IMG/VR virus record: IMGVR_UViG_3300036793_000038
Location: 1 to 58,843 of that record
DNA from: a virus
Taxonomy: Duplodnaviria; Caudoviricetes
Strand: one strand, 5' to 3'
DNA: 58,843 bases
A program made the translations under genes and the position numbers. The notes beneath the pieces were generated by a model. That model was not told where the DNA came from and did not search any database. It saw only the letters and a list, made by a program, of their open reading frames with translations. Shown here piece after piece: positions 6,752 to 37,509 of this stretch (positions are counted from its first letter, which is position 1; every line of letters begins with the position of its first letter).

Positions 6752-7249
6752 TTACTGGGCAAACCCCTCGATAAGACCCCTTGTAACGAAGTCATCCGGC
6801 GCGGTGCCGGGATGGTGCACGACGGTGGCAAACCGGATCTCCCCGTTGACCATGAACCGCAGGGCGCTGTTCTGCACGCGCCGCCGCTTCAGCCGGTGAC
6901 CCTTGCCGTTGAACGCCGGTCCCTCGGCCGCCTGCACGTAGTGCGCACCCCTCGGTCGAATCTCGTGCGGCGGCGTGCCGTCCAACACGAACCCGAGGTA
7001 GGGCGTCAACGCGGTCGACCCGATGTCGATCGTCACCGACGCCGTGTTGTGGGTGTCCCGGCTGAACATGGTGGGCCGCTTGCGCACGGTGGCGGCCAGC
7101 CGACCGGTATGCCTCGGTGCGTTGTGCTGGATCGAGGTCTGGACGTGCCCCGCGCGCCGCTCGATATCCTTCGCCAGGTCACCGAACGGATCCATGAAGT
7201 AGGCGTCCACCAGCAGGTCGTCAATGTGGACGTTGACACTGGTCGCCAT
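6752..7249 (-). CDS. Tail completion / HK97 gp10-like protein
   Basis: Start reassigned to ATG 7249 (TGATG coupling); AP.HTGRL, GT.PHEI.P, VHHPGT motifs. Confidence 0.75.
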   Translation of the reverse strand: MATSVNVHIDDLLVDAYFMDPFGDLAKDIERRAGHVQTSIQHNAPRHTGRLAATVRKRPTMFSRDTHNTASVTIDIGSTALTPYLGFVLDGTPPHEIRPRGAHYVQAAEGPAFNGKGHRLKRRRVQNSALRFMVNGEIRFATVVHHPGTAPDDFVTRGLIEGFAQ

Positions 7250-7791
7250 CAGCTCAGGTCGAACGACGAGACGTAGAACTGGCACACGGCCCCGACGAAC
7301 CCGCCGGACGGACCGGCCGGGTTGACGATGCCGGGCCGCACCACGGCGCCCTTGGATCGCAGCGTGTTGCCGAACGCCACGGTGGCCTGTGACAGCAGCC
7401 CCATGTCGCGCAGGATGCCCAGGCCCCAAGCGTTCAGCGTGTCCATGTCCGGCACGCCGTCACGGATCGTGGAGGTGTCCGGCGTGCAGCGCACCAGCTC
7501 AACGTCGTATACGACGTGCCGCTGCGCCAGGCCCCGACTGTTGTTGGCCTGCATCGTCACCGGGTAGGACTCCTCGGCCACGCCCCAGCCGATGCCCTGG
7601 ATCGTCACCGTGAGCTGTTCGCAGTCCCACGCCACGGCGGTCGGCTCGCCGCCGGACACGTACCGGCGTTCCGGTAGCGGCCGGTCGGATGCCGCGAAGT
7701 GGGCTACTACGGCGGATAGGAGATCGGCGGCCAGCAGGTCGACCCGCAGGCCCTGTCCGGCCGTGGCGAGATCCGGCACTACGTCTGTCAT
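7249..7791 (-). CDS. Tail terminator-like protein
   Basis: 180 aa, AWDCEQL, VELVRC, GPSGGFVG motifs; position in connector block. Confidence 0.65.
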   Translation of the reverse strand: MTDVVPDLATAGQGLRVDLLAADLLSAVVAHFAASDRPLPERRYVSGGEPTAVAWDCEQLTVTIQGIGWGVAEESYPVTMQANNSRGLAQRHVVYDVELVRCTPDTSTIRDGVPDMDTLNAWGLGILRDMGLLSQATVAFGNTLRSKGAVVRPGIVNPAGPSGGFVGAVCQFYVSSFDLS

Positions 7792-7988
7792 GGCTTCACC
7801 TGTGCCGCGTCCAGGGCAGCGAGAGCGGCAGCGAGGCGGTCGTCTGCGCCCTCGTCCGGGTCCGCCGGGGGATCGATACCGGGCGCCTCAGGTTCGGTGC
7901 TCTCCGGCGTGCTCGCGGGCTCGATCGTCGCGACCGGCTGTGCGTGGAGCGGCACGGCGGGCGTAAACGGATGGCTGGACGGCTGCAT
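7788..7988 (-). CDS. Small Pro/acidic hypothetical protein (probably leaderless)
   Basis: 66 aa; TAAGCT -10 six nt before ATG; ATGA overlap with next gene. Confidence 0.6.
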   Translation of the reverse strand: MQPSSHPFTPAVPLHAQPVATIEPASTPESTEPEAPGIDPPADPDEGADDRLAAALAALDAAQVKP

Positions 7989-10721: not shown

Positions 10722-12560
10722 TCACGAGTTGATGAACTGCGGGGAGATCGTGCCGACCGTGGCACCCGACGGCTTGCCCGTCACGATGCCCAGGCGCAGC
10801 GACTCGATGCCCCGGAACGCCAGGCCCTCGAACGACTCGGTGAAGGTCCGGTACCGGTTGCGGGCGTTCAGCACGCTATCCCGGACCAGGCCCAGGTCGA
10901 GCACGCCGCCGTCCAGGTACAGCCAGTCGCCCGTGGCAAACAGGGCGGTGTCCACGACCTGCGGGAACTCCGGGACCTGCGAACCGGCCGCCGCGTTGTC
11001 GTAGAACTGCTGCGGCATCACGTTGGCGGTGCCGCCGATCTGCGTCTGCGCCAAGCCGTCCAGGTGCCACACGGGGGTGACGCCTCGGGCCGCGAACCAG
11101 CCGTCGATCGTGGCGTTCGCGACCGCCATCTGCGCCATGTCCAGTGCGAAGCCACGGGTCATGTCGGCCCGGATCAGCTCGCGCACCCAGCGAGGCAGGA
11201 TGAAGGTCAGCGGCACGACGTCGTTGAGGCGGTGCCTGCTCCGGTAGTAGGCCACCGAGCGGTCCAGGGTCACCAGCATGTCGCGGGCGCTGGACACGGA
11301 CGGACCGGCCGCCGCGCCGGGAGCCACCCAGTTGAAGTTGGTGCCCGGCCCGATCAGCAGCTTGCTGCCGGGGTCACCGGTCTGCGTGCCGTCGGTGGAG
11401 CCGTTGAGCAGCCGAGTCAGCAGCTGGTTCTCCATGAACCGGGCCGCCGCGATCAGTGCCGCCTGCGTGGTGGCGTCCGCCCATTCCGGGTCGAACCGCG
11501 AGGTGAAGTTGGGGAACTCCATGCACAGGTACGTGCTGTAGACCGAGGCGGCCAGCAGGCCGGGGCAGTCCACGACCGCGCAGCCCTTGACGACCGAGTC
11601 GTCAGGGGGATTGGGAACCGAGGCGTCGTCGGCCGCCGTCCAGATGCCCAGGCCGCCCGTGTGACCGGACTCGCCCAGGACGTCACTGCCCAGCGCGTCG
11701 AACGGCGGCCGGTACTGGATGCCGCCGCGCTCCACCTGGAAGCGGTTGAGGGCGTTCATGACGGGCCGGTCGGTGACGCCGATCGTGTCGATGTCGTAGA
11801 TGATCTCCAGCGGGGCACAGAATCCACCGGCCGCCGTGATCGCCTGCGGGTCCTGACCGGCCTCGATCTTGCGCGTGTTGTCGGTCCAGGTGGCGTCCCT
11901 GCTCAGCACCCGATCCTCCGGGTAGGACAGGTTGAAGCTGACCACGTGGTGCTTCGCGCCGTCGGCCGATGCGCCGCCCCGGTCCGGGGTGAACACGTCG
12001 TTCATGCGCGTCGCCATCGCCGCTGCCATCTGCTCCCGACCGAGCTGCTGGCCCATGTTGAAGCCACGGACCTCGGCGGACAGCGTGCGGGTGGCGGTGA
12101 TCGTGCCGGCGTTGGCGGACGCGCCCTGGTCGCCTCGTGCGGCGGTCGCGGCACCCAGCGGGGCACCGGCGGCCGTGGTGGCGCCACCCTTCGCGCCGGT
12201 CGAGGACGGGGCGGTCTTCTGGCCCTTGGCCTCGGCCTTGTCCTGATCGGTGTCGCCGTCGATCGGGTCGCCCTTCGGGCCGCCGGTCGGCTTGGTCGCC
12301 AGGTCGCCGTCGGTCGCCTCGGTCTTGCCCTCGGGCAGGGCGGCCAGTGCGGCAGCCTTGTCGTCGGCGAGCGCGGTGCGCCGGTCCTGCTCGGCCTTGA
12401 CCTGCTTGGCCTGATCGGCGTAGCCCACCAGCTGGTCGACGTCCTCGCGGGACGTTGCCTCGCGCAGCGGCTTGGCCTGTTCGGCGATGAAGTCCAGCGC
12501 GCCCTGGAGGTCGGCGTCGGACGCCTCGGCCAGGCTCGCGAGGATCTGCGTGATGTCCAT
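10722..12560 (-). CDS. Major capsid hexamer protein with N-terminal scaffold region
   Basis: Start ATG 12560 (AGGAG RBS); AITAAGGFCAPLEIIYDI, RGGI, LDLGLVRDS.LN..N.Y..FTESFEG motifs. Confidence 0.9.
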   Translation of the reverse strand: MDITQILASLAEASDADLQGALDFIAEQAKPLREATSREDVDQLVGYADQAKQVKAEQDRRTALADDKAAALAALPEGKTEATDGDLATKPTGGPKGDPIDGDTDQDKAEAKGQKTAPSSTGAKGGATTAAGAPLGAATAARGDQGASANAGTITATRTLSAEVRGFNMGQQLGREQMAAAMATRMNDVFTPDRGGASADGAKHHVVSFNLSYPEDRVLSRDATWTDNTRKIEAGQDPQAITAAGGFCAPLEIIYDIDTIGVTDRPVMNALNRFQVERGGIQYRPPFDALGSDVLGESGHTGGLGIWTAADDASVPNPPDDSVVKGCAVVDCPGLLAASVYSTYLCMEFPNFTSRFDPEWADATTQAALIAAARFMENQLLTRLLNGSTDGTQTGDPGSKLLIGPGTNFNWVAPGAAAGPSVSSARDMLVTLDRSVAYYRSRHRLNDVVPLTFILPRWVRELIRADMTRGFALDMAQMAVANATIDGWFAARGVTPVWHLDGLAQTQIGGTANVMPQQFYDNAAAGSQVPEFPQVVDTALFATGDWLYLDGGVLDLGLVRDSVLNARNRYRTFTESFEGLAFRGIESLRLGIVTGKPSGATVGTISPQFINS

Positions 12561-12611
12561 CGGGACAGCTCTCCTCGTCATCGGATCACGTCTACTCGGT
12601 GGGCTCTTGGC

Positions 12612-15461: not shown

Positions 15462-15590
15462 CCTCGGCTGCTCACCTCGTTTCTGCTTCGCGATCGACTC
15501 CTTGACCGCCTTGTCGATCTCGGCCTGATCGGCCTTGGCCTTGTCGATCTTGGCTTGCGCCTCCTTGCGCGCCTTCTCCTCGTCGGTCAC
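15459..15590 (-). CDS. Small Lys/Ala-rich protein
   Basis: 43 aa from GTG; GTGA overlap. Confidence 0.5.
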   Translation of the reverse strand: MTDEEKARKEAQAKIDKAKADQAEIDKAVKESIAKQKRGEQPR

Positions 15591-15802
15591 TTCGCACTCC
15601 TCTCCGCGCCACCCAGCCGGGCGACGAACAGCAGGACGAACAGCACGGCGGACAGGCTGGACACCATCGCCAGCACGGCGATACCCGGCCCGTAGCCGTT
15701 GCCGTAGTCCGGGTGGATCGCGCTCACGACCGCCAGCGAGGCGAGCGAGGTGGCGCACAGGCCGCCCATCGCGCAGGCGGCATCGGTCAGGAAGGTGTGC
15801 AC
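15587..15802 (-). CDS. Two-TM membrane protein
   Basis: 71 aa from GTG, AAGGAG RBS, two hydrophobic segments. Confidence 0.6.
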   Translation of the reverse strand: MHTFLTDAACAMGGLCATSLASLAVVSAIHPDYGNGYGPGIAVLAMVSSLSAVLFVLLFVARLGGAERSAK

Positions 15803-15837
15803 GGGTACTCCTTGGTCGGTGATTCGTGAATCGTGAA

Positions 15838-16071
15838 TCAGTACGCGGCGACCTGGCCGACCTCGATCAGCTCGCTGACGTGCACGGTGAACTCGCTGCC
15901 CGAGAACTCCTTGCAGTCCAGGTAGCCTGCCGCGTCCACGGCGAACACCTTGGCGTCGCGGTCCTCCTGGCCGTTGCCCTCGTCGTAGGACAGGAAGGCG
16001 GTGGCGGTGCGACCGGTGTCGGTGATGCGGCGCAGCTCGGCGACTCGGGCTTTGATCTCGCTCTTGGTCAT
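15838..16071 (-). CDS. Hypothetical protein (probably leaderless)
   Basis: 77 aa; ATG six nt after -10 of box promoter. Confidence 0.7.
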   Translation of the reverse strand: MTKSEIKARVAELRRITDTGRTATAFLSYDEGNGQEDRDAKVFAVDAAGYLDCKEFSGSEFTVHVSELIEVGQVAAY

Positions 16072-16076
16072 ACCGA

Positions 16077-16106
16077 TAGCTTACACCCCCGAGAGGGGTG
16101 TGTCTA
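16077..16106 (-). promoter_or_regulatory. Box promoter
   Basis: TAGACA-CACCCCTCTCGGGGGTG-TAAGCT-N6-ATG. Confidence 0.85.
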
Positions 16107-16844
16107 TGCCGCTTTGCCTCGATGATGCTGCTTGAACAGCGCCCTGCCCGCCGGGGTGGCCAGCATGATGTTCGTGGCCAGCCCATTCGACTGCCCCGCC
16201 GGCACGCCTTCCTTCAGCAGCGCGTCCCGCAATGTGGTCCAGGGATTGGCGCTCCCCATCCAACGCGCAGTTCCTTTCCCCTTTGTCCAGTAAAGCCAGA
16301 GTTTCGACCCCCGACCGATCTGCAAACGAGACAGGAACTGCGCCTCGGACAGGTCGGCCAGCTTGTCGCCGTCGTCGCCGCCGCCCAACCACTCGTGCAG
16401 GTCGGCCGCCGCGTCCGCCTCGTCCTCGTCCGCGTAGCCGCCGACGTCGACATACCCGCAGGTGCACGAGTAGGCCCAGCCGGTCGGCCGGTCCGTGCCC
16501 GCCACGTCCTCGGCAGTGAGTTGGTAGGTGAGCATGACGTGCTCGGGCTCACCGGACGCCTTCACGCCGCGACTGGCGATCTCGGCCAGCACCGCCTTGT
16601 GCGCCTTGGACTTGGCGCCCGGCTTGCCCAGCAGGCTCGCGCGACGGGCCAGTTCCTTGTCCAGGGCGTGCAGGTGGCCGGTGGACGTGGACTTCAGCGC
16701 GTCCCGAGGCTTGTCCTTGGACGCGAGGCTGTTGGCCGCGCTCTCCACGTTTGGGTGGCTCTTGTCGCCCACCTTGATCCAGCCGTGCACGTAGCCCTTC
16801 GGCCCGACGAACTCACCCGAGCCTGCCGGGCTCAGCCGAAAGGG
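16104..16844 (-). CDS. Head-morphogenesis-associated ORF, probably a -1 frameshift extension of the capsid protease
   Basis: Frame open from CCCTTTC (16844-16838): PFRLSPAGSGEFVGPKGYVHGWIKVG...KLWLYWTKGKG; in-frame GTG 16790 falls inside the GPKGYVHGW motif. Confidence 0.65.
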   Translation of the reverse strand, partial: PFRLSPAGSGEFVGPKGYVHGWIKVGDKSHPNVESAANSLASKDKPRDALKSTSTGHLHALDKELARRASLLGKPGAKSKAHKAVLAEIASRGVKASGEPEHVMLTYQLTAEDVAGTDRPTGWAYSCTCGYVDVGGYADEDEADAAADLHEWLGGGDDGDKLADLSEAQFLSRLQIGRGSKLWLYWTKGKGTARWMGSANPWTTLRDALLKEGVPAGQSNGLATNIMLATPAGRALFKQHHRGKAA

Positions 16845-19228
16845 AGTGCCGCCAGGGCGAGGTCACGCAGGGCTGCGTTGCGCCGGTCCTCGTCGGACAG
16901 GGCGCCGGTACCGGCCGCGTCGCCGCCCTCGGTCTCCTCGTCCGTCTGCGGCAACTGGATACCGGCCTGTCGCAGGTACTCGATCACCGACGCGCCGATC
17001 TGCGTGCCCACGTCGTCGTTCTTCGTGGCGCCCTTCGTGTTCGGGTGCACCTGCTGCACGGCCCCGGCCGCAACCAGCGCCATGACCTCGCCGGACGCGA
17101 CACGCGCCCTCGGCACCGGGAATCCGGGCACGTTCACGGCGAGCGCCGCCACCAGTTCGAGGCGACCACTGACGGGCCGCCAGTCGCCGGACAGGGCGTG
17201 TGCCCGCACCTGTGCCGCGTCGGCGTCCGGGCGCAGTCGACCGCTGAACCAGATGCCGTGCGCGTCGTCGCCGACCGCGATGTCGGCCGCCACCGTGCCG
17301 GTGTTGTCATAGTGAGCCGCAGCAGGCGCGGCAGCGAGGCTGGTGGAGGCGTGACCGGTGCCGAGGGTGATGTGCCCGACGGCGACACTGCGCAGCTCAC
17401 CGGCCTCGTCGCGGGCACGCACCGAGCCGGTGCCGAAGTAGGCATAGTCCGAATGGTTGCGGGGTGGCGTGACGCACTGTCCGGCGAACCCGATGTGACA
17501 GGTGCCCCACGTCGCGAGGTGGCCGAACACGCGGCCGTCGTCGTCCACGGTGAGCGCCGTCGGCTCGGACAGCTTCGGGTTGGCGAAGTCGCTCAACGCG
17601 GGGAACTCGGGCACGCCAGCGGCCGTGGTGGCCTTGACGCTGCCGTCGCTGCCCCAGTTGTCCGGGATCATCTTGGACAGGCCCAGCTTGCGGGCGACAC
17701 CGATGATGTACTTGCGGATCGCGTCGTGGTCGCCCTTGCCGCGACCGACCGCCCGGATCGCCTTGGTGAGGTCGCCAGCGTTCTCAATCGGGTAGCGCGC
17801 ATTGCCAGCCGGCTTGCCCTTCGCGGGTGGTAGCGCCTGCCCCTTCTTGAGGGCGCTGGCCCTCTTGTCGGCGTTGGGTGCTTCCTTCACCGCGTAGCCG
17901 TCGTCATCGAACTCCTCGCCGCTGGCCAGCAGCTCGCACAGCAGGCATCCCTCGTCGCCGACCTCGCTGGAGCGCCACGCGCTCGCCGCCAGCGCCACGT
18001 TGTCGGTCGCCGGGGACAGCTCCTGGCCGTCCAGCACGACGTACGCCTGTGCGAACGCAGGGATCGGCACGAGCGTGGTGGCGGCGATCTTGCCGCCGTG
18101 CACCACCAGCGACTCGGTGCCCTCGCCCAGCTCGTTCACGTCCTCCATCACGTACTCGGCGTCCATGTCCGACAGGTCGATGCTGTTGCCGGTGAGGTAG
18201 CCGCGCCGGGCCAGGTCGGTCGCCTCGGCGTCCGGGTGCAGCTCACCCTTGCCGGACCACACGAACGTGTTCTCAGGGAACGGCTGACCGGTTTCCTTGT
18301 CCACGACGTCCGGGCCGGGCACGCGCGTCATCTCCGCGATCTTGCCCACGACGGCCGCGCCGCTGTGGCCACCCTGGCCGCCGTTCGTGACCTGCGCCAG
18401 GACCGGGATCGGCAGCGCGCGGTGCGACAAGGCGCCCGGCTCAATGTAGCGGTGGTCGCTGGTGGCCAGACCTTCCACGGCCAGCACGGGGAACGTCACC
18501 GGCACGCCGTCGGTCACGGCCGCGTCCACGGCCTCGGGCGACAGGTCGCCAGGGTTGGCGTCGGCCACGATGCTGCTGGTCATGTCAGGTGCCTCCTCGG
18601 GCGCCACCATCGGGTAGTCGGTCACAGTGTCGCCGATCACGACCCGGACGCGGTCGAACGTCACGGGGCCTGCGTAGGACAGGGCCGTGATCGGCAGGTT
18701 GTAGCCCGCCGTGACGTGCGGGACGAACGGGGTGTGCTGCTGCGGGAACTCGATCGAGCCCAAGGCGTCCTTCGCCTTGTAACACACGATCTGCTGTAGC
18801 TCCTCCAACTGCATCCGACCGCCGCTGCCGTCGATCAGGTACACGGTCGCCGGTTCGTCCGGGCCGGCACCGTCCTCGGTGGCGTTCGGGTTGAACACGG
18901 CGTGCGCGAAGATGGCGCATTCGATCGGGCCGCGCTGTGCCGGGCCGAAGTAGGCACTGCTGAGGTCCGGCGGTGCCCACGGCACGCCGTCGGCCGCCGC
19001 CTGCGCCTGGCCCTGTGCGACGTCGTAGGACCAGTTGGTCAGGCAGTGCACGATGTTCTGGAGTGCCGCCACCGTGTCCGCATCCCAGTCGGTGACGTCG
19101 TCACCGAGGTAGGCGAGCGTCAGGTGCAGCTCGGTGACCGGGTCGCCGCCGGGCACGACGAGGTTCACCAGGCTGTCGTTGCTCGGCACGAGCGCGATCA
19201 TGCCGCCCGTGTGCAGTGGCTCGGTCAT
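16832..19228 (-). CDS. Capsid maturation protease fused to N-terminal 2H phosphoesterase (Acb1/2'-5' RNA ligase-like)
   Basis: HLTLAYLG and PHVTAGY (two HxT motifs); VEG..TSD.R.I..GAL, GRVFGHLATWGTCHIG, LSGDWR, LELVAALAVNVPGFPVPR of cluster-B-type proteases. Confidence 0.85.
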   Translation of the reverse strand: MTEPLHTGGMIALVPSNDSLVNLVVPGGDPVTELHLTLAYLGDDVTDWDADTVAALQNIVHCLTNWSYDVAQGQAQAAADGVPWAPPDLSSAYFGPAQRGPIECAIFAHAVFNPNATEDGAGPDEPATVYLIDGSGGRMQLEELQQIVCYKAKDALGSIEFPQQHTPFVPHVTAGYNLPITALSYAGPVTFDRVRVVIGDTVTDYPMVAPEEAPDMTSSIVADANPGDLSPEAVDAAVTDGVPVTFPVLAVEGLATSDHRYIEPGALSHRALPIPVLAQVTNGGQGGHSGAAVVGKIAEMTRVPGPDVVDKETGQPFPENTFVWSGKGELHPDAEATDLARRGYLTGNSIDLSDMDAEYVMEDVNELGEGTESLVVHGGKIAATTLVPIPAFAQAYVVLDGQELSPATDNVALAASAWRSSEVGDEGCLLCELLASGEEFDDDGYAVKEAPNADKRASALKKGQALPPAKGKPAGNARYPIENAGDLTKAIRAVGRGKGDHDAIRKYIIGVARKLGLSKMIPDNWGSDGSVKATTAAGVPEFPALSDFANPKLSEPTALTVDDDGRVFGHLATWGTCHIGFAGQCVTPPRNHSDYAYFGTGSVRARDEAGELRSVAVGHITLGTGHASTSLAAAPAAAHYDNTGTVAADIAVGDDAHGIWFSGRLRPDADAAQVRAHALSGDWRPVSGRLELVAALAVNVPGFPVPRARVASGEVMALVAAGAVQQVHPNTKGATKNDDVGTQIGASVIEYLRQAGIQLPQTDEETEGGDAAGTGALSDEDRRNAALRDLALAALPFG

Positions 19229-19512
19229 ACGATGTGCTCCGTTTCGGACAGGTTCAGAGCGATGGCTTCCTGCCCGTACTTCAGCCGTAGCCCGGACAGT
19301 GCGGCCCGCAGGTCGTCCTCGCGGGCCGGTTCGATCTCAAACGCCACGCAGGCGTTCTGGTAGACCGAGGTCGACATGCTGCTCCAGGTGCCGTGCAGGC
19401 GCACGCCGACGGCCAGCACAACCAGCTCCAGGTCGGTGACGAACGTCGACCAGCGCTCTTGTGTCAGCTTGTCGTCGCTGTTGCCGATCGCGACGTGCGC
19501 CGTGCGGTTCAC
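19225..19512 (-). CDS. Conserved actinophage hypothetical protein
   Basis: GTG start; IGNSDDKLTQ..W..F, YQNAC, KYGQEAIA motifs. Confidence 0.65.
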   Translation of the reverse strand: MNRTAHVAIGNSDDKLTQERWSTFVTDLELVVLAVGVRLHGTWSSMSTSVYQNACVAFEIEPAREDDLRAALSGLRLKYGQEAIALNLSETEHIV

Positions 19513-19604
19513 CGGAACGGCCTCCACGGGTGCACGATCAGGATCAGCAGCAGCAGGATCGCCACGATGATCAGGATGGTGTTGGTGGTCGAGACGCTGT
19601 CCAT
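19509..19604 (-). CDS. Single-TM micropeptide
   Basis: 31 aa MDSVSTTNTILIIVAILLLLILIVHPWRPFR; GGAGG RBS, coupled on both sides. Confidence 0.55.
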   Translation of the reverse strand: MDSVSTTNTILIIVAILLLLILIVHPWRPFR

Positions 19605-19822
19605 CAGTCCTCCACGGGCTCAAACGTGAGGGTGTAGCTGCCCTGCTCGAACCCCGACAGGACCTCGTCCTTCACGGTCATCGTGAGGGACAGGCCGGGC
19701 GTGTACTTCGCCCACTCTTTGTTGGCGCCGTCGGCGTAGTCGGCGGTGAAGTGCAGCGTGGTCTGTCCGTCGCCGGACGGCTGCCGGTCGTAGATCCTGA
19801 CCTTGGCGGTGGTGGCCATCAT
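19604..19822 (-). CDS. Small beta-rich phage protein of unknown function
   Basis: about 72 aa with ANKEWAKYTPG.SL.MTV...F..G.Y.LTF motif; coupled to acb2 stop. Confidence 0.7.
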   Translation of the reverse strand: MMATTAKVRIYDRQPSGDGQTTLHFTADYADGANKEWAKYTPGLSLTMTVKDEVLSGFEQGSYTLTFEPVED

Positions 19823-20061
19823 TCCTCCGGGTTGTTGAACGGGTCGGCTGGTTGGGCGATCGAGCGCACGAGCGCGCTGAAGCCCTCCTGGAAGTGGGTG
19901 CGGGCGATCGCCAGCCACCGGCCGTCGATCTCGTCCTCACCCGCGACCGCGCGCCACAGCGTCGCCACTTCGGCCTCAGTGGCCTTGACGGCGTTCATGG
20001 CGTCGATCTCTGCGGGCCTCAGGTCGCGGTAGCCCTTGATCGCTCGGTGCTGATTCTCCAT
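19819..20061 (-). CDS. acb2: Anti-CBASS protein Acb2 (cyclic oligonucleotide sponge)
   Basis: MENQHRAIKGYRDL..EIDAMNAVK...GRWLAIARTHFQEGFSALVRSIAQP closely matches recalled PaMx33 Acb2, with Y11 and K26 at the same positions. Confidence 0.88.
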   Translation of the reverse strand: MENQHRAIKGYRDLRPAEIDAMNAVKATEAEVATLWRAVAGEDEIDGRWLAIARTHFQEGFSALVRSIAQPADPFNNPEE

Positions 20062-20098
20062 CAGTTCGCCTGCTCTCGGCCCGTGGATATGGGCCATA

Positions 20099-20344
20099 CG
20101 TATACGGTCGAACAGTGGGCCTGACCAGCGACTACTTGCGTATACGCCTGACGGCCCTCTCGTCCACCTGCTGCGGGAAGTCGTCCTGCCTCGTCGCCCA
20201 GTTGAGAGCGACCCGCATGACCTCTGACCTGGTCGTTTGGTACTTCTCGGCCAGCCTGTCCATGTAGTCCACACCCTCGGCCGACAGTCGAACGGGTGTC
20301 ACAATGCGCGCTGTCATGCGTATACGGTAGCGCGCCGTATACGG
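20099..20344. promoter_or_regulatory. Four CGTATACG palindromes around the RHH gene (candidate operators)
   Basis: CGTATACG at 20099, 20139, 20319, 20336; the 20319 copy overlaps -10 TACCGT and the 6-nt gap to the ATG. Confidence 0.7.
20132..20317 (-). CDS. CopG-like ribbon-helix-helix DNA-binding protein
   Basis: 61 aa: VTPVRLS strand, GVDYMDRLAEKY helix, TRSEVMRVAL helix. Confidence 0.85.
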   Translation of the reverse strand: MTARIVTPVRLSAEGVDYMDRLAEKYQTTRSEVMRVALNWATRQDDFPQQVDERAVRRIRK

Positions 20345-20356
20345 TGCTCGCCGTCC

Positions 20357-23083
20357 TCATGCCGGGTTCCGATCCAGGAACCGCTGCTGCAACGCCACGA
20401 TGCGATCCCGCTCCGCGACGTTGCCCTGCGCCACCGTGCCACTGCGTCGGGCCGCCTCGTCCGTCGCCGCCAGGATGCGGTCGCCGCTGATCTGGCCGCT
20501 GTCGACCTGAAGGGCCTCTCGGGTGTCCCGGTACTCCGGGATCGCCCACACGGGCACGTAGTCGCACATGCAGCCGTCGTGATCGCCAGGATGGAAGAAC
20601 GGCCCCACCCATTCGTAGCCGGGCGACAGCCTCGTGTTCAGCTGCTCGTCCATCCATCCGCCGAACCGTGCGCCGTCCAGCTTCTCGTGCGGCTCGAACT
20701 CGCGAGGCGTCGGCGTGATGCCGTACACCCACTCATAGCCCAACTGCTGTCCGCCCTGGTCAGCGACGGTGGACATGACGGTTTCGCCGACCAGTCCACC
20801 GGCCGGCACGCCATCGTTCGCGGCACTGCCGCCCTTCTCGGTGGCGCCACCACTGCCCGGTAGCACGCCGCCGACCTCGGCCAGTGCGGCCCGGACGACG
20901 CCCGGCGGCACCAGTGCCGCCTTGGACTCGCCACGGCTCTCGCCGGACGGGTGGTACAGGCGCTGCTGTGCGACCTCGCGCAGCCTCGACTCCAGCCGGG
21001 ACCAGCCACGCTCCTGACGGGCCGCCAGCGCCTCGTTGACGTGGTCAGACACCTTGCGCGCCTCGTCGCCCTTCAGGCCCAGCAGCTTCGCCACGGCCCG
21101 CGACAACTGGAGGATGCTGTTCGACGTCCACGTCAGCCACTTCGCGTGCAGCGCCTCGAACGCACCCGTCAACAGCGCCGCGAGGTCCACGCCCCGCTTG
21201 GCCAGTTCGGCCTCGCCGATCAGCATGGCGAAGCTCGCGGCATCCGCATCCTTGAGACGTTCACGCAGCTCAGGGGTGCGCTGGACACTGGACCGGACAC
21301 GGGCGCCCGCCTTCTCCAGCGCCCGCTCAATCGCGTCCTCGGCGGCCACGATCAGCCGGTCCCGCAGTGCACGCTCGATCTCCACCAGGCGTGCCGAGTC
21401 CGCCTCGGTGGTGTGGTAGCCGCCTGCCGCCGTCAAGGCGTCCGCGATGCTGCTCAGCGTGTCTGTCCCCACGGCCGGGATGTCGTCGCGCGTCATCCCG
21501 ATCACGGCCAGCGCCCACTCGCGGCGACCGAGGTCGGACAGGCCGGGCGGCGGGGCAGGCGTGTTGCTCGGTGGCGCCTCGCCAGCCGTGTTGCCGCTGG
21601 TGGGCGTGCCCTGCCCGGTCTGCGGCGTGACCGGCTCCAGGCCCTTCGGTCCTTCGTGCTCCTCGATCGTGACCGTGGTGCGGGCCGGGGTGAGGACGTC
21701 CTGGCCGGGCGCGAACACGCGCTGAATGAGCTGCGCGGCCGTGATCGGGTCCATACCGGTCTTCATCAGCAGCTGCCGCAGTACCTGCTTGTCGTCCGGC
21801 GCGTCCTCCTCGCTGAAGCCCAGAGCGTCACGCAGCGCATCGTCGTTGATGACGACGCGGTCGTGTGCGTCCTTCGCATCCTGTGCTCGGTTGGGATTCT
21901 CTGTGAGGTTGCCGGCGTCGAACCACACCCGCACGAGGGCGATTTCTTGCAGGTCAAACTGCTTGCGGGCGATCAACCGGGGCCACAGATAGCCTTCGGT
22001 CAAACTGTCCACGATGTTTCGGACACGTGGGTCTATGTGGTAACGGTACGTGTTCAGGTCGATCTGCGCGCCGGTCCAGTGGTTCGTCTCGCCGATGCCG
22101 GACAGCACCTCGGGCGGCAGGTCCAGGCCGGTGCCGAGGCGCTGGAGCGCGTTGTCCAGGGCGGCCAGCAGGCTCGTGTTGTCGTCGCGGACCAGCTGGA
22201 GGTGTCGCACGCCGGCCAGGTCTTCCGTGTTGCCCTTGATGACCATGGGCACGACGGCGCCGGGTTCGCCTTCGTTGTTGATCGGGGCGAGCATGGCGGC
22301 GGTGAACTCGGCCATGAACCCGTCCTCGTCCGGGTCCTGTTCCTGGTCGGCTTGGGTGGCGGGCTGGAGGGACAGTCCGTCCGGGAGTAGCAGGATGCCG
22401 TTGGCGGCGGCACGGGAGCGGCGCACGGCGCGGCGTTCGCGGCCGTTGAGCACGATCTCGCCGCACAGGTCCTGCATGGCGCGCATGGGGGCGTCGGCGA
22501 AGTCGCTGTATCGCGGGTGGGGTAGCCACAGCCGCAGCATGTCTTCGGTGGACGGGTCGACCTGGTGGCGGATCTGGCCTTTGCCGTTGACGAGGAACAT
22601 GCCGCCGTCGGCCGCGATGCGGACCTCATCGACGGACAGGACTTCCCAGCGTTCCCTGCCCAGCGGGTCGGTGTAGCCGTGTAGCCAGCATTCGCCGGTC
22701 AGGTCGAAGTTCTCGGCGATCTTGCCTTGGAAGTCGGCACCGGAGTCGAGTGGCAGGCGGGCCAGCTCATCCTCCACGGCCTGCATCAGCTCGTCCGACA
22801 CACCGTCAGGCTTCTTGGCGAAGGGCACCGGGTCGTCGCTGTCCGTCGACGTGGCGGCACCGATGACCTTGACGCGGCCGATGGCGTTGGCGATGAACTT
22901 GCCGGCGAACCTCAGCTCGGGAATCAGGTCGCGGTACACCCACGAGTCGGTCTGCCAGACCTGCTTGGTGCCGACGAGCAGGCGCAGCGACTCGCGGTCG
23001 CGGGTGTCGATGAACGCACCCGAGGCGCGCAGCAGGGTCGGCTTGCGCTTCAGCGGGTGCGTGTTGGGCAGCGCCACGGTCAT
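20357..23083 (-). CDS. Portal protein with C-terminal MuF-like head morphogenesis domain
   Basis: WQ..SW..RD.IPELRF, RLW.PHPR, GLDLPPEVL.G....NHW portal motifs; C-terminal H..LDG...HPGDHDGCMC. Confidence 0.88.
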   Translation of the reverse strand: MTVALPNTHPLKRKPTLLRASGAFIDTRDRESLRLLVGTKQVWQTDSWVYRDLIPELRFAGKFIANAIGRVKVIGAATSTDSDDPVPFAKKPDGVSDELMQAVEDELARLPLDSGADFQGKIAENFDLTGECWLHGYTDPLGRERWEVLSVDEVRIAADGGMFLVNGKGQIRHQVDPSTEDMLRLWLPHPRYSDFADAPMRAMQDLCGEIVLNGRERRAVRRSRAAANGILLLPDGLSLQPATQADQEQDPDEDGFMAEFTAAMLAPINNEGEPGAVVPMVIKGNTEDLAGVRHLQLVRDDNTSLLAALDNALQRLGTGLDLPPEVLSGIGETNHWTGAQIDLNTYRYHIDPRVRNIVDSLTEGYLWPRLIARKQFDLQEIALVRVWFDAGNLTENPNRAQDAKDAHDRVVINDDALRDALGFSEEDAPDDKQVLRQLLMKTGMDPITAAQLIQRVFAPGQDVLTPARTTVTIEEHEGPKGLEPVTPQTGQGTPTSGNTAGEAPPSNTPAPPPGLSDLGRREWALAVIGMTRDDIPAVGTDTLSSIADALTAAGGYHTTEADSARLVEIERALRDRLIVAAEDAIERALEKAGARVRSSVQRTPELRERLKDADAASFAMLIGEAELAKRGVDLAALLTGAFEALHAKWLTWTSNSILQLSRAVAKLLGLKGDEARKVSDHVNEALAARQERGWSRLESRLREVAQQRLYHPSGESRGESKAALVPPGVVRAALAEVGGVLPGSGGATEKGGSAANDGVPAGGLVGETVMSTVADQGGQQLGYEWVYGITPTPREFEPHEKLDGARFGGWMDEQLNTRLSPGYEWVGPFFHPGDHDGCMCDYVPVWAIPEYRDTREALQVDSGQISGDRILAATDEAARRSGTVAQGNVAERDRIVALQQRFLDRNPA

Positions 23084-23086
23084 CGG

Positions 23087-23413
23087 CTACTCCACGTCCC
23101 GGCTGGCCAGCCAGCCCGTCACGGTACTGAAGGCGAGCGGCACGGCGACGATCGGCCAGACGTGCGGGATCACGCTCATGATCGCGACCACCCCCGCTCC
23201 GATCCAGAACCCGATGCACCAGGCGCAGTCCACCAGGGCGGTCGCCGGATGCTCGCTCTCGCGCCCCTCGTTCAGCTTGTCGATCACAGTCTGCCGCACG
23301 CGTGGTAGCGGGGGCAGGCTGTCGCGTGTCCACAGCCTCGTCAGCCGGCAGGCGGCCAGCGCGTTGACGATCAGCCACACCGGGTCGTGCAGCCAATCCA
23401 GGTGGGCGCTCAC
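23087..23413 (-). CDS. DUF1360-like membrane protein
   Basis: ALA..RLTRL...D, L.DC.WC.GFW motifs; precedes portal. Confidence 0.8.
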   Translation of the reverse strand: MSAHLDWLHDPVWLIVNALAACRLTRLWTRDSLPPLPRVRQTVIDKLNEGRESEHPATALVDCAWCIGFWIGAGVVAIMSVIPHVWPIVAVPLAFSTVTGWLASRDVE

Positions 23414-23655
23414 TCGATCCGGGCCACGGCGACCGCCTGCACGGCGTTCTGGTAGATCGCGGACAGGTCACCGGGGGCGACACCGGGCGCGGCGAGGTGC
23501 AGCGCGTACCAGATCACCTCGTGCTGTGCGGCGACCTCGGTGGCCGCGCCACAGACGCACGTCAGGTGCACGAAGTGCTCGCCCTCCACGACAGCGTCAA
23601 CGCGGCGGCCGGTGATCGCGTGCACCACGTCGCCTTCTCGCACCTGGATGTTCAT
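23410..23655 (-). CDS. Hypothetical protein
   Basis: 81 aa from MNIQVREG; ATGA/GTGA overlaps. Confidence 0.55.
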   Translation of the reverse strand: MNIQVREGDVVHAITGRRVDAVVEGEHFVHLTCVCGAATEVAAQHEVIWYALHLAAPGVAPGDLSAIYQNAVQAVAVARIE

Positions 23656-24008
23656 GCCGGCCACGGCAGCGTGTTGCGCGCCCACTCCGGTACCCAGTAC
23701 TTGAGCCGGGAGCCGCAGCCACAACCGCCACCGCCCGTGATCGTCACGGTGCCGCCCTCCACGGGCAGGTAGTAGCCCATCCGGGCGTCGTTGAGGGGTC
23801 GCGTGGCGGCGGCGAAGTCGATCGGGGCCGTGAAGGCAGGCTCCACGTCCGCGCTGGCCTTCACCGGGGCCTGCCGGTAGACGTACACGCCCTGCGGGGT
23901 GAGGAACACCTTGCAGCGGTGCAACACGGTCCGGTCCGGCAGCACCACGCTGGCGGGGTAGAACGAGGCATACGCGCCGGTCGGCGTGGTGATCACGGAC
24001 TCGGTCAT
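23652..24008 (-). CDS. Conserved actinophage protein with GCGCGS motif (probably leaderless)
   Basis: 118 aa, C-terminal GGCGCGSRLKYW.P; -10 TACGAT seven nt before ATG. Confidence 0.7.
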   Translation of the reverse strand: MTESVITTPTGAYASFYPASVVLPDRTVLHRCKVFLTPQGVYVYRQAPVKASADVEPAFTAPIDFAAATRPLNDARMGYYLPVEGGTVTITGGGGCGCGSRLKYWVPEWARNTLPWPA

Positions 24009-24015
24009 GGGGTTG

Positions 24016-24062
24016 ATCGTACAGCAGACACCCCCCGACGCGGGGGTGCGTCGGGGGGTGTC
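24016..24062 (-). promoter_or_regulatory. Portal-operon promoter with perfect 15-bp inverted repeat
   Basis: GACACCCCCCGACGC-N6-GCGTCGGGGGGTGTC (24027-24062); -10 TACGAT at 24021-24016. Confidence 0.7.
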
Positions 24063-24078
24063 GATGGGGGTGCTGCGG

Positions 24079-24315
24079 TCAGCCCTCCAGCTGGTTGCGG
24101 TGGTTGTCGCAGACGTTGACTCCGTGCGTGTTGTCGGTCCAGGCCGCCTCGCGCCGGCAGTAATGGCACTTCTGGCCGCCCCGGATACGGCGGGTGACGC
24201 GCTTGACGACCTTGCGCCGCTCGCGACGTTCGGTCGCCGCGTCCGCCGCCGCCTGCGTTCTCTCGTTCTTGGCCTGCTGCTTGGCGCTGGCGATCATCGC
24301 CTTGCGGTAGCTCAC
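24079..24315 (-). CDS. Small zinc-finger protein
   Basis: CHYC...VCDNH. Confidence 0.6.
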   Translation of the reverse strand: MSYRKAMIASAKQQAKNERTQAAADAATERRERRKVVKRVTRRIRGGQKCHYCRREAAWTDNTHGVNVCDNHRNQLEG

Positions 24316-24530
24316 CGGTTGTACTCCCCCTTCTCGGCCTTACGGATGAACCGTCGGTACGTCCTGACCGCGCTGGCCAGGGTCCTGTCGCCGGTCGAGA
24401 TGTCGACCTGCGTGCCACGACGGAACGCCTGGATCGTGTACTTGCGGGTCGCCGGGTCGGTGCCGTCCACCTCGTACAGGTCCACGCGCACGTCCTGCGG
24501 GAAGGTGGCCCGGTCACGTAGCTGCTTCAC
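24312..24530 (-). CDS. Hypothetical protein
   Basis: GTG start, GAGGAG RBS, GTGA overlaps. Confidence 0.55.
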   Translation of the reverse strand: MKQLRDRATFPQDVRVDLYEVDGTDPATRKYTIQAFRRGTQVDISTGDRTLASAVRTYRRFIRKAEKGEYNR

Positions 24531-30987: not shown

Positions 30988-31593
30988 CTACCAGGCTTCA
31001 GGGAGCCCGGAAGTGTTGGCGGCGTGGTGGCGCCACAGCCAGGTCCGCATCGGCACGTGCACGATCTTCGCGCCCGCCTCGACACAGTCCAGGGTGAAGG
31101 CCCAGTCCTCGCCGCTGTTGAGCCGCTTGCCGTCCGATCCGGCCGGCACGTCGGTCGTGGCGTCATGGAACGGGTAGAGCTTGGCCAGCTCGGTGCGCAC
31201 CAGGATCGTGATCGTGGTCTGCGTCGGGTTGACCGGGTCGAACACGCGCCCGAAGTGGCCCAGCGGGTCATTCTCCGGGTGCAGGCCACCCCGGTCGTCC
31301 ATCACCGTGTAGTAGCTGAACACGTAGTCGGCGCCGGTCAGGTGCTGTGCGGCGGCCAGCGCCTCCAGGTGCCACGGCAGCATCATGTCGTCGTCGTCCA
31401 GGAACGCCGTCCAGTCCGACTCGACCTGCTCGACACCCTTCGCTCGGGTGGCCGCCGCGCCGTCGTGGTACTGGTCGCGGGATACCAGCAGGTTGACCGG
31501 CAACAGGCGTTGCCGCTGCACCGACGTGATGGCCTGCTCCAGCAGCTTGGATCGGGGCGCGATCGTCGGGATGACCACGGTGATGTCCAGCAT
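30988..31593 (-). CDS. Glycosyltransferase family 2
   Basis: Start ATG 31593; ITVVIPT, GAAATR, WTAFLDDDD, GEDW motifs. Confidence 0.9.
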   Translation of the reverse strand: MLDITVVIPTIAPRSKLLEQAITSVQRQRLLPVNLLVSRDQYHDGAAATRAKGVEQVESDWTAFLDDDDMMLPWHLEALAAAQHLTGADYVFSYYTVMDDRGGLHPENDPLGHFGRVFDPVNPTQTTITILVRTELAKLYPFHDATTDVPAGSDGKRLNSGEDWAFTLDCVEAGAKIVHVPMRTWLWRHHAANTSGLPEAW

Positions 31594-31766
31594 CAGTGCC
31601 TCCTGGACGGCTCGCCCGGATACGCCGGACCAGCCTTGACGTCGGCCCGGTGGATGCGCTCGTCGCACGCCCTCCGGCTGGTGCACACGTAGACGCCGTC
31701 CAGTGTGTGCCGGAACAGCCGCGTGCCGACCCGGCCGCAGCGCTTGCATACGCGGTGCGCCTTCAC
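31593..31766 (-). CDS. Small zinc-finger protein
   Basis: CKRCGR...VCTSRRAC from GTG. Confidence 0.55.
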   Translation of the reverse strand: MKAHRVCKRCGRVGTRLFRHTLDGVYVCTSRRACDERIHRADVKAGPAYPGEPSRRH

Positions 31767-35679: not shown

Positions 35680-37509
35680 CTATCCGCCCGGCCGGGTCGA
35701 GATGCGTGCCCCCATCGGTGCCCGCCGCACGGTGCGGTGTGCGGACGTCTCGATCGCCGTGCCGGTGCTCGCGCCCGTGCTCGTCGTCGCACGGGGCGCT
35801 GGCGTGAAGCTGCCCTTGCCCGAGCGGGACAGCTCCGTGATCAGGTGCACCCACGCGTCCATCCGGTCCGGGCTGTCCTGGCTCGGCAGCCACGTGCAGG
35901 CTTGGTGCTCCAGGGTCATGAAGTGGCCGACGTGGTGCACCAACAGTTCCTCGACCAGCGGTGACATGATCTCGGCCCGCAGGCGCTTGTTCACGATCGG
36001 GTTGACGATGCGGATCGGGAACCCTGTTTCGCGCGGCAGGGACAGGATCGTGGGCACCCACGGCCACATCTCGCGCAGCTGCTCGTCGCGGGCCAGCTTC
36101 TCGCTCGCGCTGTCCTCCTCGTCCACGAGCGCGCCCGCCACGGCCTCCACGACGGCCGCGACCGGGCGAACCGGCCACGGGTCGTCGGCCGCCGCGATGT
36201 GCGCCCACGCGCCGTCCAGCAGGCGGGCCTGCTTGCGCACCGCCTTCCACGTCTCCCGGTAGGTGCGCCGCAGGCCGGACAGCGAGCGCTCCCAGCCGAT
36301 CCAGCCCGACCCGCGCCGGCACGCCGCGTAGATCGCCTTGCGCATCCACTGGCCCGCCGTGTAGTGGCCCGAGTCGTCGGCCAGCAGGTAGTACTGACTG
36401 TCCGAGCCGATGCCGCCGGTCATGATGCCGGCCTCGTCGCCGGTCCCGGTGTTGTCGGCCGGGTCGACCATCGTGCCGATCGCCGCCATTTCGGGTGCCG
36501 CACTCACCCGTGCCGAGTCGAACCAGGCGCGCTTGAACGTGCCGCCCTCGGGCGCGGACGGGCTGCCCTGGTACAGGGCCTGCCACCAGCGGCTGCCGAT
36601 CTGCCGTGGCTTGGCTTCCCACTCCCTGATCGTGCGGGCTCGTGCGCTGATCAGCCACTCGCCCGGCGCTCGGCCCAGCGGGTCATTCTCCAGGGCCTGT
36701 GCCGGGATGTTGATCCGGCCGTACTCCGGTGACGGGGCCAGGTCATCCTCTTTGATCAGCCAGCCCGCCAGGTCATCCTCGTGCCAGCGGGTCTGGATGA
36801 TGATCACGATGGCGCGGCCGGACAGGCGTGCCGAGGCGACCGCCTGAAACCAGTCCTTGACACGCTGCCGGTACAGCGGCGAGTCGGCCTGCTTCGCGTC
36901 CTTCAACGGGTCGTCCACGATCAACACATCGGCAGGGCGGCCAGTGAAGGCGGACCCGACACCCACCGAGATCATGCCGCCGGCCCCACGCCGGCCAGGG
37001 ATGTCGGCCAGCACCCAGTTGGTGTTCATGGCCCGGTCAGGGTCGAGGGTGAGCCCCAGGACGTCGACCCGGTCCGGGTCCGGGCGTTGTCCTTTGTAGC
37101 CGCGTCCGTGCTGCTCGATCGCCTGCCGGACGGCCAGCGTGGACTGCGTGGCAATGCCCTGCTCGTACGAGGCGACCGCGATCCGCAGGCTCGGGTCGCG
37201 GATCAGCAGCCACAGCATCGCCACCTGGCTGATACGGGTCGTCTTGCCCTCCTGCGGGGGCGTGTTGATGATCCAGCGGCGCTGGAGACCCATCCACGCC
37301 TGCGCGACCGCCTCATCGAGCTTGTCCAGCAGCGGTGTCTGCACGGTGCCCCGGTTGAGGAACTGCGCGAGGTGGCCGGGCGTGGGGAACCGGTTGATCG
37401 CCTCGCGCCGCTTCAGCAGGGCGTCCACGCGCGGCTGGGCCATCTTGCGTTCGGCCGGGGTGAGTTCGGCCAGGACGGCGGCGACCTGTTCGCCGACGGT
37501 GCCGGTCAT
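35680..37509 (-). CDS. terL: Terminase large subunit
   Basis: PPQEGKT Walker A, LIVDDP Walker B, QTRWHEDDL, DPA/GDEAGI nuclease, SPDRMDA. Confidence 0.95.
   Translation of the reverse strand: MTGTVGEQVAAVLAELTPAERKMAQPRVDALLKRREAINRFPTPGHLAQFLNRGTVQTPLLDKLDEAVAQAWMGLQRRWIINTPPQEGKTTRISQVAMLWLLIRDPSLRIAVASYEQGIATQSTLAVRQAIEQHGRGYKGQRPDPDRVDVLGLTLDPDRAMNTNWVLADIPGRRGAGGMISVGVGSAFTGRPADVLIVDDPLKDAKQADSPLYRQRVKDWFQAVASARLSGRAIVIIIQTRWHEDDLAGWLIKEDDLAPSPEYGRINIPAQALENDPLGRAPGEWLISARARTIREWEAKPRQIGSRWWQALYQGSPSAPEGGTFKRAWFDSARVSAAPEMAAIGTMVDPADNTGTGDEAGIMTGGIGSDSQYYLLADDSGHYTAGQWMRKAIYAACRRGSGWIGWERSLSGLRRTYRETWKAVRKQARLLDGAWAHIAAADDPWPVRPVAAVVEAVAGALVDEEDSASEKLARDEQLREMWPWVPTILSLPRETGFPIRIVNPIVNKRLRAEIMSPLVEELLVHHVGHFMTLEHQACTWLPSQDSPDRMDAWVHLITELSRSGKGSFTPAPRATTSTGASTGTAIETSAHRTVRRAPMGARISTRPGG

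Follow-up and report, generated by a model that had tools for sequence, protein, structure and literature searches.

A predicted short-form Acb2 sponge gene between the portal and head protease genes of an uncultivated actinophage-like virus

Introduction

The genes between the portal and the head maturation protease of a complete, linear virus record of 58,843 bp (the whole stretch of DNA analysed, hereafter the window) raise the question of what a short open reading frame (ORF) lodged among head genes encodes, which ligands its product would bind, and whether its expression is tied to that of its neighbours. The original prediction, made from the letters of the sequence, was that the ORF encodes Acb2 (anti-CBASS 2), a sponge for cyclic nucleotides, in the head operon of an actinophage, and that its position ties it to late gene expression. 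The analysis described here leads to the conclusion, held with a probability of roughly 85%, that a canonical Acb2 of the short form is the product of the minus-strand ORF 20061..19819 and works as an Acb2-type sponge.

The virus record and its likely host

The GC content of the window ranges from 65 to 71% (68% overall), and the minus strand carries nearly all of its genes. A tblastn search with the portal protein matched 877 phage records, with identity of at most 33% among the matches listed; the ten commonest genus names are all those of actinobacterial hosts, and one listed match is to a cyanophage. The N-terminal domain of the protease fusion described below (241 aa) matched 351 phage records, all of them actinophages, and megablast of positions 19000-21000 against the phage records returned no match. 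Calling the virus an actinophage is reasonable, given a complete 58.8-kb record with high GC content and portal matches whose ten commonest genus names are those of actinobacterial hosts.

The acb2 gene and its start

The gene under study is located as follows.

19819..20061, minus strand: acb2, with an ATG at 20061 and a TGA stop at 19821-19819; 80-aa short-form Acb2, predicted cyclic-oligonucleotide sponge

Translation of the reverse strand of 19819-20061 gives 80 amino acids followed by a TGA stop, and the product carries ENQHRAIKGYRDL..EIDAMNAVK and GRWLAIARTHFQEGFSALVRSIAQP. The motifs on which the original prediction was built (NQH..IKGYRDL, EID.MN.VK and GRWLAI) are present in this minus-strand translation exactly as they were quoted. 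The 80-aa protein was also correctly described as lying within a longer called ORF, which is a mechanical 151-aa ORF (19819..20274) with a GTG start that encloses acb2.

The two possible starts differ in their codon composition. The 80-aa part has GC contents of 0.69/0.45/0.89 at the three codon positions, similar to the 0.71/0.47/0.88 of the portal gene, whereas the upstream extension of the 151-aa ORF gives 0.49/0.77/0.58 and overlaps, in another frame, a small gene for a putative ribbon-helix-helix (RHH) DNA-binding protein. On the basis of the extension's composition, the 151-aa ORF was rejected as a high-GC artefact. Homologues including the Acb2 of phage PaMx33 share the start M-[ED]-N-Q-H, and the exact 80-aa product is already recorded in a protein collection, where it has a precomputed PF24729 label. 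The portal-like codon GC, the start shared with homologues and the product on record together indicate that the 80-aa form is the real gene.

Family membership and fold

The original prediction was open to a profile and structure search against Acb2 and Tad1, and the outcome of that search favours Acb2. The protein matches the Pfam family PF24729 (Acb2/Tad1 hairpin) over profile positions 1-58 of 58 with 64.3 bits and an E-value of 1.2e-17, against a gathering score of 27 bits. When all PDB chains are searched with phmmer, the best matches include 8h2j (E 1.1e-13) and 8ixz (E 4.3e-13), and the significant matches (9 listed) consist only of the 'p26' chains of 8H2J/8H2X/8H39 and 8IXZ-8IY2/8J8O. 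In the Foldseek listing the titles of 8H2J and 8H2X name Acb2, and 8IXZ, 8IY0-8IY2 and 8J8O are described in PMC10312549 as Acb2-ligand complexes. An AlphaFold2 model built with 63 homologues has a mean pLDDT of 87.9, with an unstructured N-terminal segment of 15 residues and predicted helices at 16-40 and 47-69. A Foldseek search of the PDB with this model places Acb2 (8h2j, 8h2x; TMq 0.70-0.72) and the T4 protein Vs.4 (7uq2) at ranks 1-9, all with a probability of 1.00; beyond rank 9 the E-values leap to about 1, and Rop- and EsxB-like proteins appear further down. The Acb2 signature claimed from the sequence is therefore borne out, and membership of the Acb2 family is supported by three independent tests that agree: the profile, the matches to solved structures, and the predicted fold.

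Tad1 shares the PF24729 hairpin domain and likewise soaks up immune nucleotides. It carries an additional domain, whereas the window protein consists only of the hairpin and an Acb2-type N-terminal segment, and Tad1 chains are absent from the 9 phmmer matches listed and from the listed Foldseek matches. The closest Acb2 homologues in the protein collection are 70-81% identical to the window protein. Among phage records, tblastn found matches in 226 of 50,697, all below 60% identity, and the ten commonest of twenty genus names all refer to hosts outside Actinobacteria.

Neighbouring genes and the coupled chain

The genes around acb2, and the landmarks that define the head module, are the following.

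20357..23083, minus strand: portal, 908 aa, with a C-terminal extension (match to phrog_776 spanning residues 6-617, E 1.4e-94; tblastn matches to portal genes of actinophages)
20132..20317, minus strand: putative RHH DNA-binding protein, 61 aa, candidate regulator of the cassette (sub-threshold profiles, AF2 fold search)
19604..19822, minus strand: 72-aa protein whose ATG overlaps the acb2 stop (ATGA); phrog_6978, E 1e-9, function not assigned
19509..19604, minus strand: ORF for a 31-aa hydrophobic peptide, with a TGATG overlap with the 72-aa gene; GC3 1.0
19225..19512, minus strand: 95-aa protein, with a GTGA overlap upstream and an ATGA overlap with the protease gene; function not assigned
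16832..19228, minus strand: 798-aa fusion of an N-terminal LigT/2H-phosphoesterase-like domain and a head maturation protease (phrog_18402, E 9.5e-86; phrog_2659, E 5.2e-27)
35683-37509, minus strand: terminase (PHROG profile)
10725-12581, minus strand: major head protein (PHROG profile), with tail genes beyond

The position originally assigned to acb2, between portal and protease, holds: the portal gene (phrog_776) lies upstream and the protease fusion (phrog_18402) downstream, all on the minus strand. From the portal stop to the protease start there is an expanded gap of 1,128 nt that accommodates five small genes (the RHH-like gene, acb2, and the 72-aa, 31-aa and 95-aa ORFs). The acb2 gene heads a five-gene chain of stop/start overlaps (ATGA, TGATG, GTGA, ATGA) that ends in the head protease gene. 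A terminator scan of 15500-24500 found no terminator-like site on the minus strand, the only sites being on the plus strand and at chance frequency. With every junction from acb2 onward overlapping and no minus-strand terminator-like site in this interval, acb2 appears to lie physically within a transcription and translation unit of head genes.

The 72-aa and 95-aa proteins were considered as further anti-defence proteins and set aside, as they match only viral families with no assigned function and the 72-aa protein occurs in head modules of relatives with no Acb2 beside it. In 6 of 15 related loci a homologue of the 72-aa protein (48-56% identity) is encoded downstream of the protease with no adjacent Acb2, and the matches of the 95-aa protein in the Atlas are clusters of viral hypothetical proteins only. 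The Atlas model of the 72-aa protein has some likeness to a small beta-barrel, which can be taken as a lead only. The N-terminal domain of the protease fusion has a weak match to Pfam 2_5_RNA_ligase2 (E 0.0043), and a sequence search of the PDB with this 2H-like domain gave no match. The domain, set aside as a candidate Acb1-like nuclease, is widespread in actinophages, where it is annotated as an RNA ligase or as a capsid maturation protease.

Expression and the upstream RHH gene

Because acb2 heads an overlap chain that runs into the protease gene within the portal-protease gap, late expression of the sponge gene, as expected from its position and its coupling to head genes, is plausible. 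Expression of acb1 and acb2 in phage T4 is reported in PMC13478754 to be mostly middle to late, and mutations that let phages escape CBASS are reported to fall in the genes for prohead protease, capsid and tail fibre (bioRxiv 10.1101/2023.05.21.541620).

The control of the gene may, however, not be simply late. The 8-bp palindrome CGTATACG occurs 5 times in the window where 0.19 copies are expected, a count that is reached in 0 of 100 shuffles, and four of the five copies are found within 245 bp around the 61-aa RHH gene.

20336..20343, no strand: CGTATACG copy A, between the portal stop and the RHH start
20319..20326, no strand: CGTATACG copy B, which stops a single base short of the RHH ATG
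20139..20146, no strand: CGTATACG copy C, within the final codons of the RHH gene
20099..20106, no strand: CGTATACG copy D, in the 70-nt spacer between the RHH gene and acb2

Copies A and B fill the 39-nt spacer between the portal and RHH genes, and the RHH ATG has no Shine-Dalgarno sequence. The fifth copy is inside a distant ORF.

The 61-aa protein has matches of the RHH type in three profile libraries, all below the curated cut-offs: to Pfam RHH_1 (E 0.0024, 18.2 bits, below the cut-off of 20.5), to transcriptional regulators in PHROG (E 2e-4 to 3e-3, below threshold), and to NCBIfam aCcr1 (E 3.4e-4, 20.4 bits, below the cut-off of 60). In its AF2 model (pLDDT 71) an extended N-terminus leads into helices, and the best Foldseek matches are to the RHH proteins CopG, TacA, Arc and ParG, all with E-values of at least 1.1. 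The protein has no sequence match in the PDB and no homologue in word-based searches, and an exhaustive search of 1.84 billion representatives found one distant relative.

The canonical position of an aca gene is downstream of the acr gene. The RHH protein Aca14 is reported in bioRxiv 10.64898/2026.07.27.740549 to repress anti-defence operons by way of AT-rich inverted repeats that overlap the -10 element. Going by the description in that preprint, the 61-aa protein is similar to Aca14 in being small and putatively of the RHH type, in being encoded beside an anti-defence gene, and in having AT-rich inverted repeats at the start of the operon together with a nearby second site; it differs in that the RHH genes there occupy canonical aca positions, whereas the RHH gene of the window precedes the anti-defence gene. 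The clustered palindromes, the RHH-like protein and the Aca14 precedent thus suggest that the cassette may have its own control. If so, the RHH protein would be an Aca14-like autorepressor, and its binding to CGTATACG would either activate or restrain transcription of the RHH gene and acb2 from a promoter of their own, independently of the head operon. Four of the five palindromes cluster at the RHH gene, one of them a base away from its ATG, RHH-type matches come from three profile libraries, and RHH proteins head the Foldseek list; against this stand the sub-threshold profile scores, Foldseek E-values of at least 1.1, the fifth palindrome within a distant ORF, and a sigma-70 pattern scan of 15500-24500 that found no promoter-like site and so neither supports nor locates a promoter. 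Furthermore, no RHH homologue lies beside Acb2 in related loci, which, with the single distant relative overall, means that there is no comparative support for pairing of the RHH gene with acb2. The spacer between the two genes has a predicted RNA structure that is not unusual (z -0.43), and a search of 18500-21000 against Rfam gave no match save one at chance level. Independent control is thus a tentative alternative, with the odds running against it.

A broader version of the arrangement is a self-regulated anti-defence cassette, in which the RHH protein would act on the four CGTATACG copies to control the sponge gene, and possibly the three coupled ORFs, with timing matched to the head assembly that triggers CBASS. 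This proposal is speculative and rather improbable, but if it were correct an anti-CBASS gene of an actinophage-like virus would be under an Aca-type regulatory circuit, for which the literature consulted has no description. The RHH gene and its palindromes in any case constitute a small and directly testable case of regulated anti-CBASS expression.

Placement of Acb2 among related loci

A scan of viral contigs with the single portal protein found no close relatives. With an alignment-based portal scan, 15 related loci were obtained and their fetched flanks examined. In 9 of the 15 loci no more than 111 nt separate the portal match from the protease match. Of all 15 loci, two (L064 and L066) have Acb2 in the portal-protease gap, another two (L059 and L061) have it upstream of a DUF1360-like gene and the portal, and in the remaining 11 it is absent from the fetched flanks. 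In other high-GC loci (L005 and L006, the latter from the same contig as L024), the position of Acb2 is downstream of the major head gene, ahead of a head-tail adaptor gene; in L028 it is also downstream of the major head gene, and in L027 it is found directly after SSB in a replication module. Given that its placement varies among relatives, Acb2 behaves like a mobile accessory gene, found often, but not always, in the virion module. Its repeated landing in the virion module fits reports of CBASS firing during late assembly.

The presence of Acb2 implies that defences with cGAS-like signalling exist in the host or in relatives of the host. In a collection of species genomes, close relatives of the window Acb2 were found at two loci only, one of them in an Actinophytocola metagenome-assembled genome (MAG). 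When 401 genomes of the phylum of that MAG (the likely host phylum) were sampled, a single one had PF24729 above cut-off, namely the Actinophytocola MAG itself, and 30 had the CD-NTase domain SMODS above cut-off (28 of 399 when two unpublished genomes, G149 and G227, are left out). As SMODS also matched 3 of 14 well-known genomes used as a control, the count of 30 in 401 gives an upper estimate for how often CBASS occurs.

Ligand-contact residues and expected ligands

In the structural account of Acb2 in PMC10312549, the dinucleotide pocket has Y11 stacking on the bases and K26 forming salt bridges, and the cyclic-trinucleotide pocket uses R67 and T74 to bind the phosphates and R67, A70 and I71 for hydrophobic contacts; L14 and P90 are described in PMC12393519 as further hydrophobic contacts. 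When the window protein is aligned with PaMx33 Acb2, all of these residues are identical: Y11, L14 and K26 have the same numbers in both proteins, and P90, R67, A70, I71 and T74 correspond to P71, R48, A51, I52 and T55. The conservation originally suggested for Y11, K26 and the Arg and Thr that bind trinucleotides can thus be seen in the alignment. With 17 homologues added, no variation occurs at G10, Y11, L14, N23, K26, R48, R66, A69 and P71, and conservation of T55 is at least 90%; across 63 homologues the invariant positions are G10, Y11, R48, R66 and P71, and conservation reaches at least 90% at K26, L14 and T55.

Short forms of Acb2 have been characterised. The JBD67 Acb2 is reported to bind cGAMP and cA3 (PMC10312549), and, according to Table S2 of PMC12393519, the 74-aa Acb2_26 inhibited both CBASS systems in which it was tested and left Thoeris of types I and II uninhibited. 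The N- and C-terminal motifs of Acb2_26 are the same as those of the window protein. As the contact residues are kept and the tested short forms are functional, the window Acb2 would, by a well-supported analogy, sequester cyclic dinucleotides.

Binding of cyclic trinucleotides is predicted from the aligned residues as likely but is less secure, since the geometry of the pocket counts besides its residues. The helix of the PaMx33 pocket is kinked at E64, and this kink is said in PMC10312549 to decide binding of cA3; the T4 Acb2 keeps the Thr, yet according to the same account it does not bind cA3 even as a D61R variant, because the helix at the pocket is unkinked. R48, A51, I52 and T55 of the window protein align with the trinucleotide pocket, and its Asp46-Gly47 aligns with Pro65-Gly66 of PaMx33 Acb2, but the model is of a monomer only, from which the kink is not readable. 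The cyclic-trinucleotide pocket varies within the Acb2 family.

The specificity of the family can also shift to other messengers, as indicated by the 10 of 46 tested homologues that inhibited type I Thoeris (PMC12393519). Such a shift would make the window protein an Acb2-fold sponge that chiefly captures not a CBASS signal but the Thoeris signal 3'cADPR, or another nucleotide messenger of actinobacterial defence. The precedent is Acb2_43, which is reported to bind 3'cADPR with no CBASS inhibition (PMC12393519). However, Acb2_43 uses extra N- and C-terminal beta-strands together with H5, L6, V7, K19 and K55 (PMC12393519), whereas the window protein has a PaMx33-type N-terminus with Y11, L14, K26 and P71 and a model with no strands; Acb2_26, a short form with the same motifs, also acts on CBASS and not on Thoeris. 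A main target outside CBASS is accordingly improbable.

Least probable is that the ORF survives only as a degenerating or co-opted remnant, such as a helical-hairpin accessory for head assembly or scaffolding with no sponge activity, for although acb2 is placed among head assembly genes and helical hairpins are common folds, as the Rop- and EsxB-like proteins lower in the Foldseek list illustrate, the frame is intact with a coding-type GC3 (0.89), it is precisely the residues contacting the ligand that vary little or not at all in 63 homologues, and the four genome positions in related phages fit a mobile accessory better than a fixed structural gene.

Proposed action of the sponge

The preferred reading, that the ORF encodes a functional Acb2-type sponge, suggests a mode of action that is modelled on characterised homologues. 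The protein would assemble as an interlocked hexamer of helical hairpins and would sequester, rather than degrade, the products of host CD-NTases. Paired protomers would contribute their N-terminal segments to the pockets for cyclic dinucleotides, where Tyr11 would stack and Lys26 would provide a salt bridge, and cyclic trinucleotides may occupy three-fold pockets lined by Arg48, Ala51, Ile52 and Thr55 (PaMx33 Arg67, Ala70, Ile71 and Thr74). The CBASS effector would then never be triggered, allowing the phage cycle to be completed. Judging from the position of the gene, Acb2 would be made alongside the proteins of head assembly, which is when CBASS is reported to become active, and the RHH protein encoded upstream, with four CGTATACG palindromes around its gene, may also repress or time the cassette.

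Comparison with known systems

The best fold match of the window protein is the PaMx33 Acb2 (PDB 8H2J, 8H2X, 8IXZ-8IY2), to which it is 42.6% identical (tblastn) and with which it has in common the motifs M-[ED]-NQH..IKGYRDL and GRWLAI..T..Q.G....R.IAQP. The two proteins differ in length (93 aa in PaMx33 and 80 aa in the window, which lacks an inter-helix insert of about 19 residues), in their C-termini (DSF in PaMx33 and ADPFNNPEE in the window) and in gene context, as the PaMx33 gene ends a replication operon whereas the window gene is in a head module. The short forms, which include the JBD67 Acb2, a homologue in Pseudomonas phage 5400 and Acb2_26, belong to a class of 74-76 aa with the same motifs; the phage 5400 homologue (76 aa) is 51% identical to the window protein and scores 67.2 bits against PF24729. 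These short forms come from phages of Gram-negative hosts or from unassigned metagenomic viruses, whereas the window has 68% GC and actinophage-like structural genes. In the B3-like Pseudomonas phage PM105, an Acb2 homologue is located in a late structural operon, right after the capsid gene.

Vs.4 (the T4 Acb2; 7UQ2) is a sponge for cyclic dinucleotides with the same fold as the window protein (Foldseek probability 1.00, TMq 0.66-0.71), but structural alignment gives only 21-24% identity, and Vs.4 is reported not to bind cA3 (PMC10312549), whereas the window protein has both the Arg and the Thr of the cA3 pocket.

The Acb2 family is already recognised in actinophages, as gp101 of Mycobacterium phage Xandras and gp57 of Microbacterium phage Statler are annotated as cyclic-oligonucleotide sponges in the papers that describe them. 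Xandras gp101 is a member of PF24729 (59.1 bits). It differs from the window protein in its length of 65 aa, in lacking the NQH..GYRDL N-terminus, in scoring no better than an E-value of 0.24 against a profile of the window subfamily, and in its location in a right-arm early region beside SSB and ClpP-like genes. Xandras gp101, the member from a cultured actinophage that was examined, therefore represents a more distant subgroup, and the window extends the canonical Acb2 of the PaMx33 type to a lineage of uncultivated, high-GC viruses that resemble actinophages.

The window Acb2 is a typical and ordinary addition to a well-studied family of which thousands of homologues have been catalogued, and knowledge of how Acb2 works is unchanged by it. 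What is new here is the start of the gene, the coupled chain, the arrangement of the RHH gene and palindromes, and the mobile placement of Acb2 among related loci. The catalogue in PMC12393519 comprises 4,204 non-redundant Acb2 homologues from IMG/VR v3; the first 40 residues of the window protein have no occurrence in its Table S1, and the same table lists the Acb2 proteins of the high-GC loci L005 and L006.

Organization of the head module

The acb2 gene, which encodes the Acb2 cyclic-oligonucleotide sponge, lies between the portal and head maturation protease genes, and the order of the genes around it differs from that in some related loci. The 72-aa gene that is coupled to acb2 (19604-19822, minus strand) is located upstream of the protease gene in the window, whereas in 6 of the 15 related loci recovered by the alignment-based portal scan (L053, L055, L056, L062, L063 and L066) the gene for the 72-aa protein follows the protease gene at a distance of ~450 nt. 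Because of this difference in position, the head module of the window virus is rearranged, and not just enlarged by insertion. Each of the two flanking head genes has an additional part:

16832-19228, minus strand: head maturation protease gene, with a LigT/2H-phosphoesterase-like domain in its N-terminal ~210 aa
20357-23083, minus strand: portal gene (908 aa), with a C-terminal part (residues ~618-908) that lies outside the portal profile

The protease gene with its 2H-like domain is directly 3′ of the acb2 gene chain. The domain has two H-x-T motifs, HLTL and HVTA, and gave weak matches in Pfam (2_5_RNA_ligase2, E 0.0043); it is matched by 351 actinophage records, in which the annotations are RNA ligase or capsid maturation protease. 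On the portal side, the portal profile spans residues 6-617 only, and a Pfam search of the C-terminal part found no match. This part is kept in relatives, includes an invariant PGDH.GCMC.Y motif and resembles head morphogenesis domains of the MuF/SPP1 gp7 type.

Possible spread of the Acb2 subfamily

A 1,218-bp metagenome contig (L023) encodes a 61%-identical Acb2 at positions 911-1141. Its tail, ARTHFQEGFSAL...DPF, is the same as in the high-GC clade, yet the contig has a GC content of 46%. The occurrence of such a homologue on a low-GC contig suggests that the subfamily passes between phages of widely differing hosts.

Additional sites and genes

Four copies of the 8-bp palindrome CGTATACG bracket the RHH-like gene just upstream of acb2, and the fifth is found in the tail/connector region, ~12.6 kb away, as the core of a longer site:

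7502-7517: 16-bp perfect palindrome ACGTCGTATACGACGT

This site is flanked by mechanically called ORFs at 6752-7429 and 7788-7988, and a 5′ extension of the former may include the palindrome.

Elsewhere in the genome, a queuine tRNA-ribosyltransferase-like gene adjoins a ParB-like gene:

40319-41179, minus strand: queuine tRNA-ribosyltransferase-like (phrog_6059, E 5e-83)
41184-41855, minus strand: ParB-like (phrog_723, E 6.5e-29)

The queuine tRNA-ribosyltransferase-like product may be a DpdA-like enzyme; enzymes of this kind insert 7-deazaguanine bases into phage DNA, providing protection from restriction. Three glycosyltransferase-like genes, for which Pfam GT2 and GT1 matches were also found, are dispersed across the genome:

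28808-29752, minus strand: glycosyltransferase-like (PHROG, E 1e-35)
30991-31749, minus strand: glycosyltransferase-like (PHROG, E 7e-38)
50545-51528, minus strand: glycosyltransferase-like (PHROG, E 4e-48)
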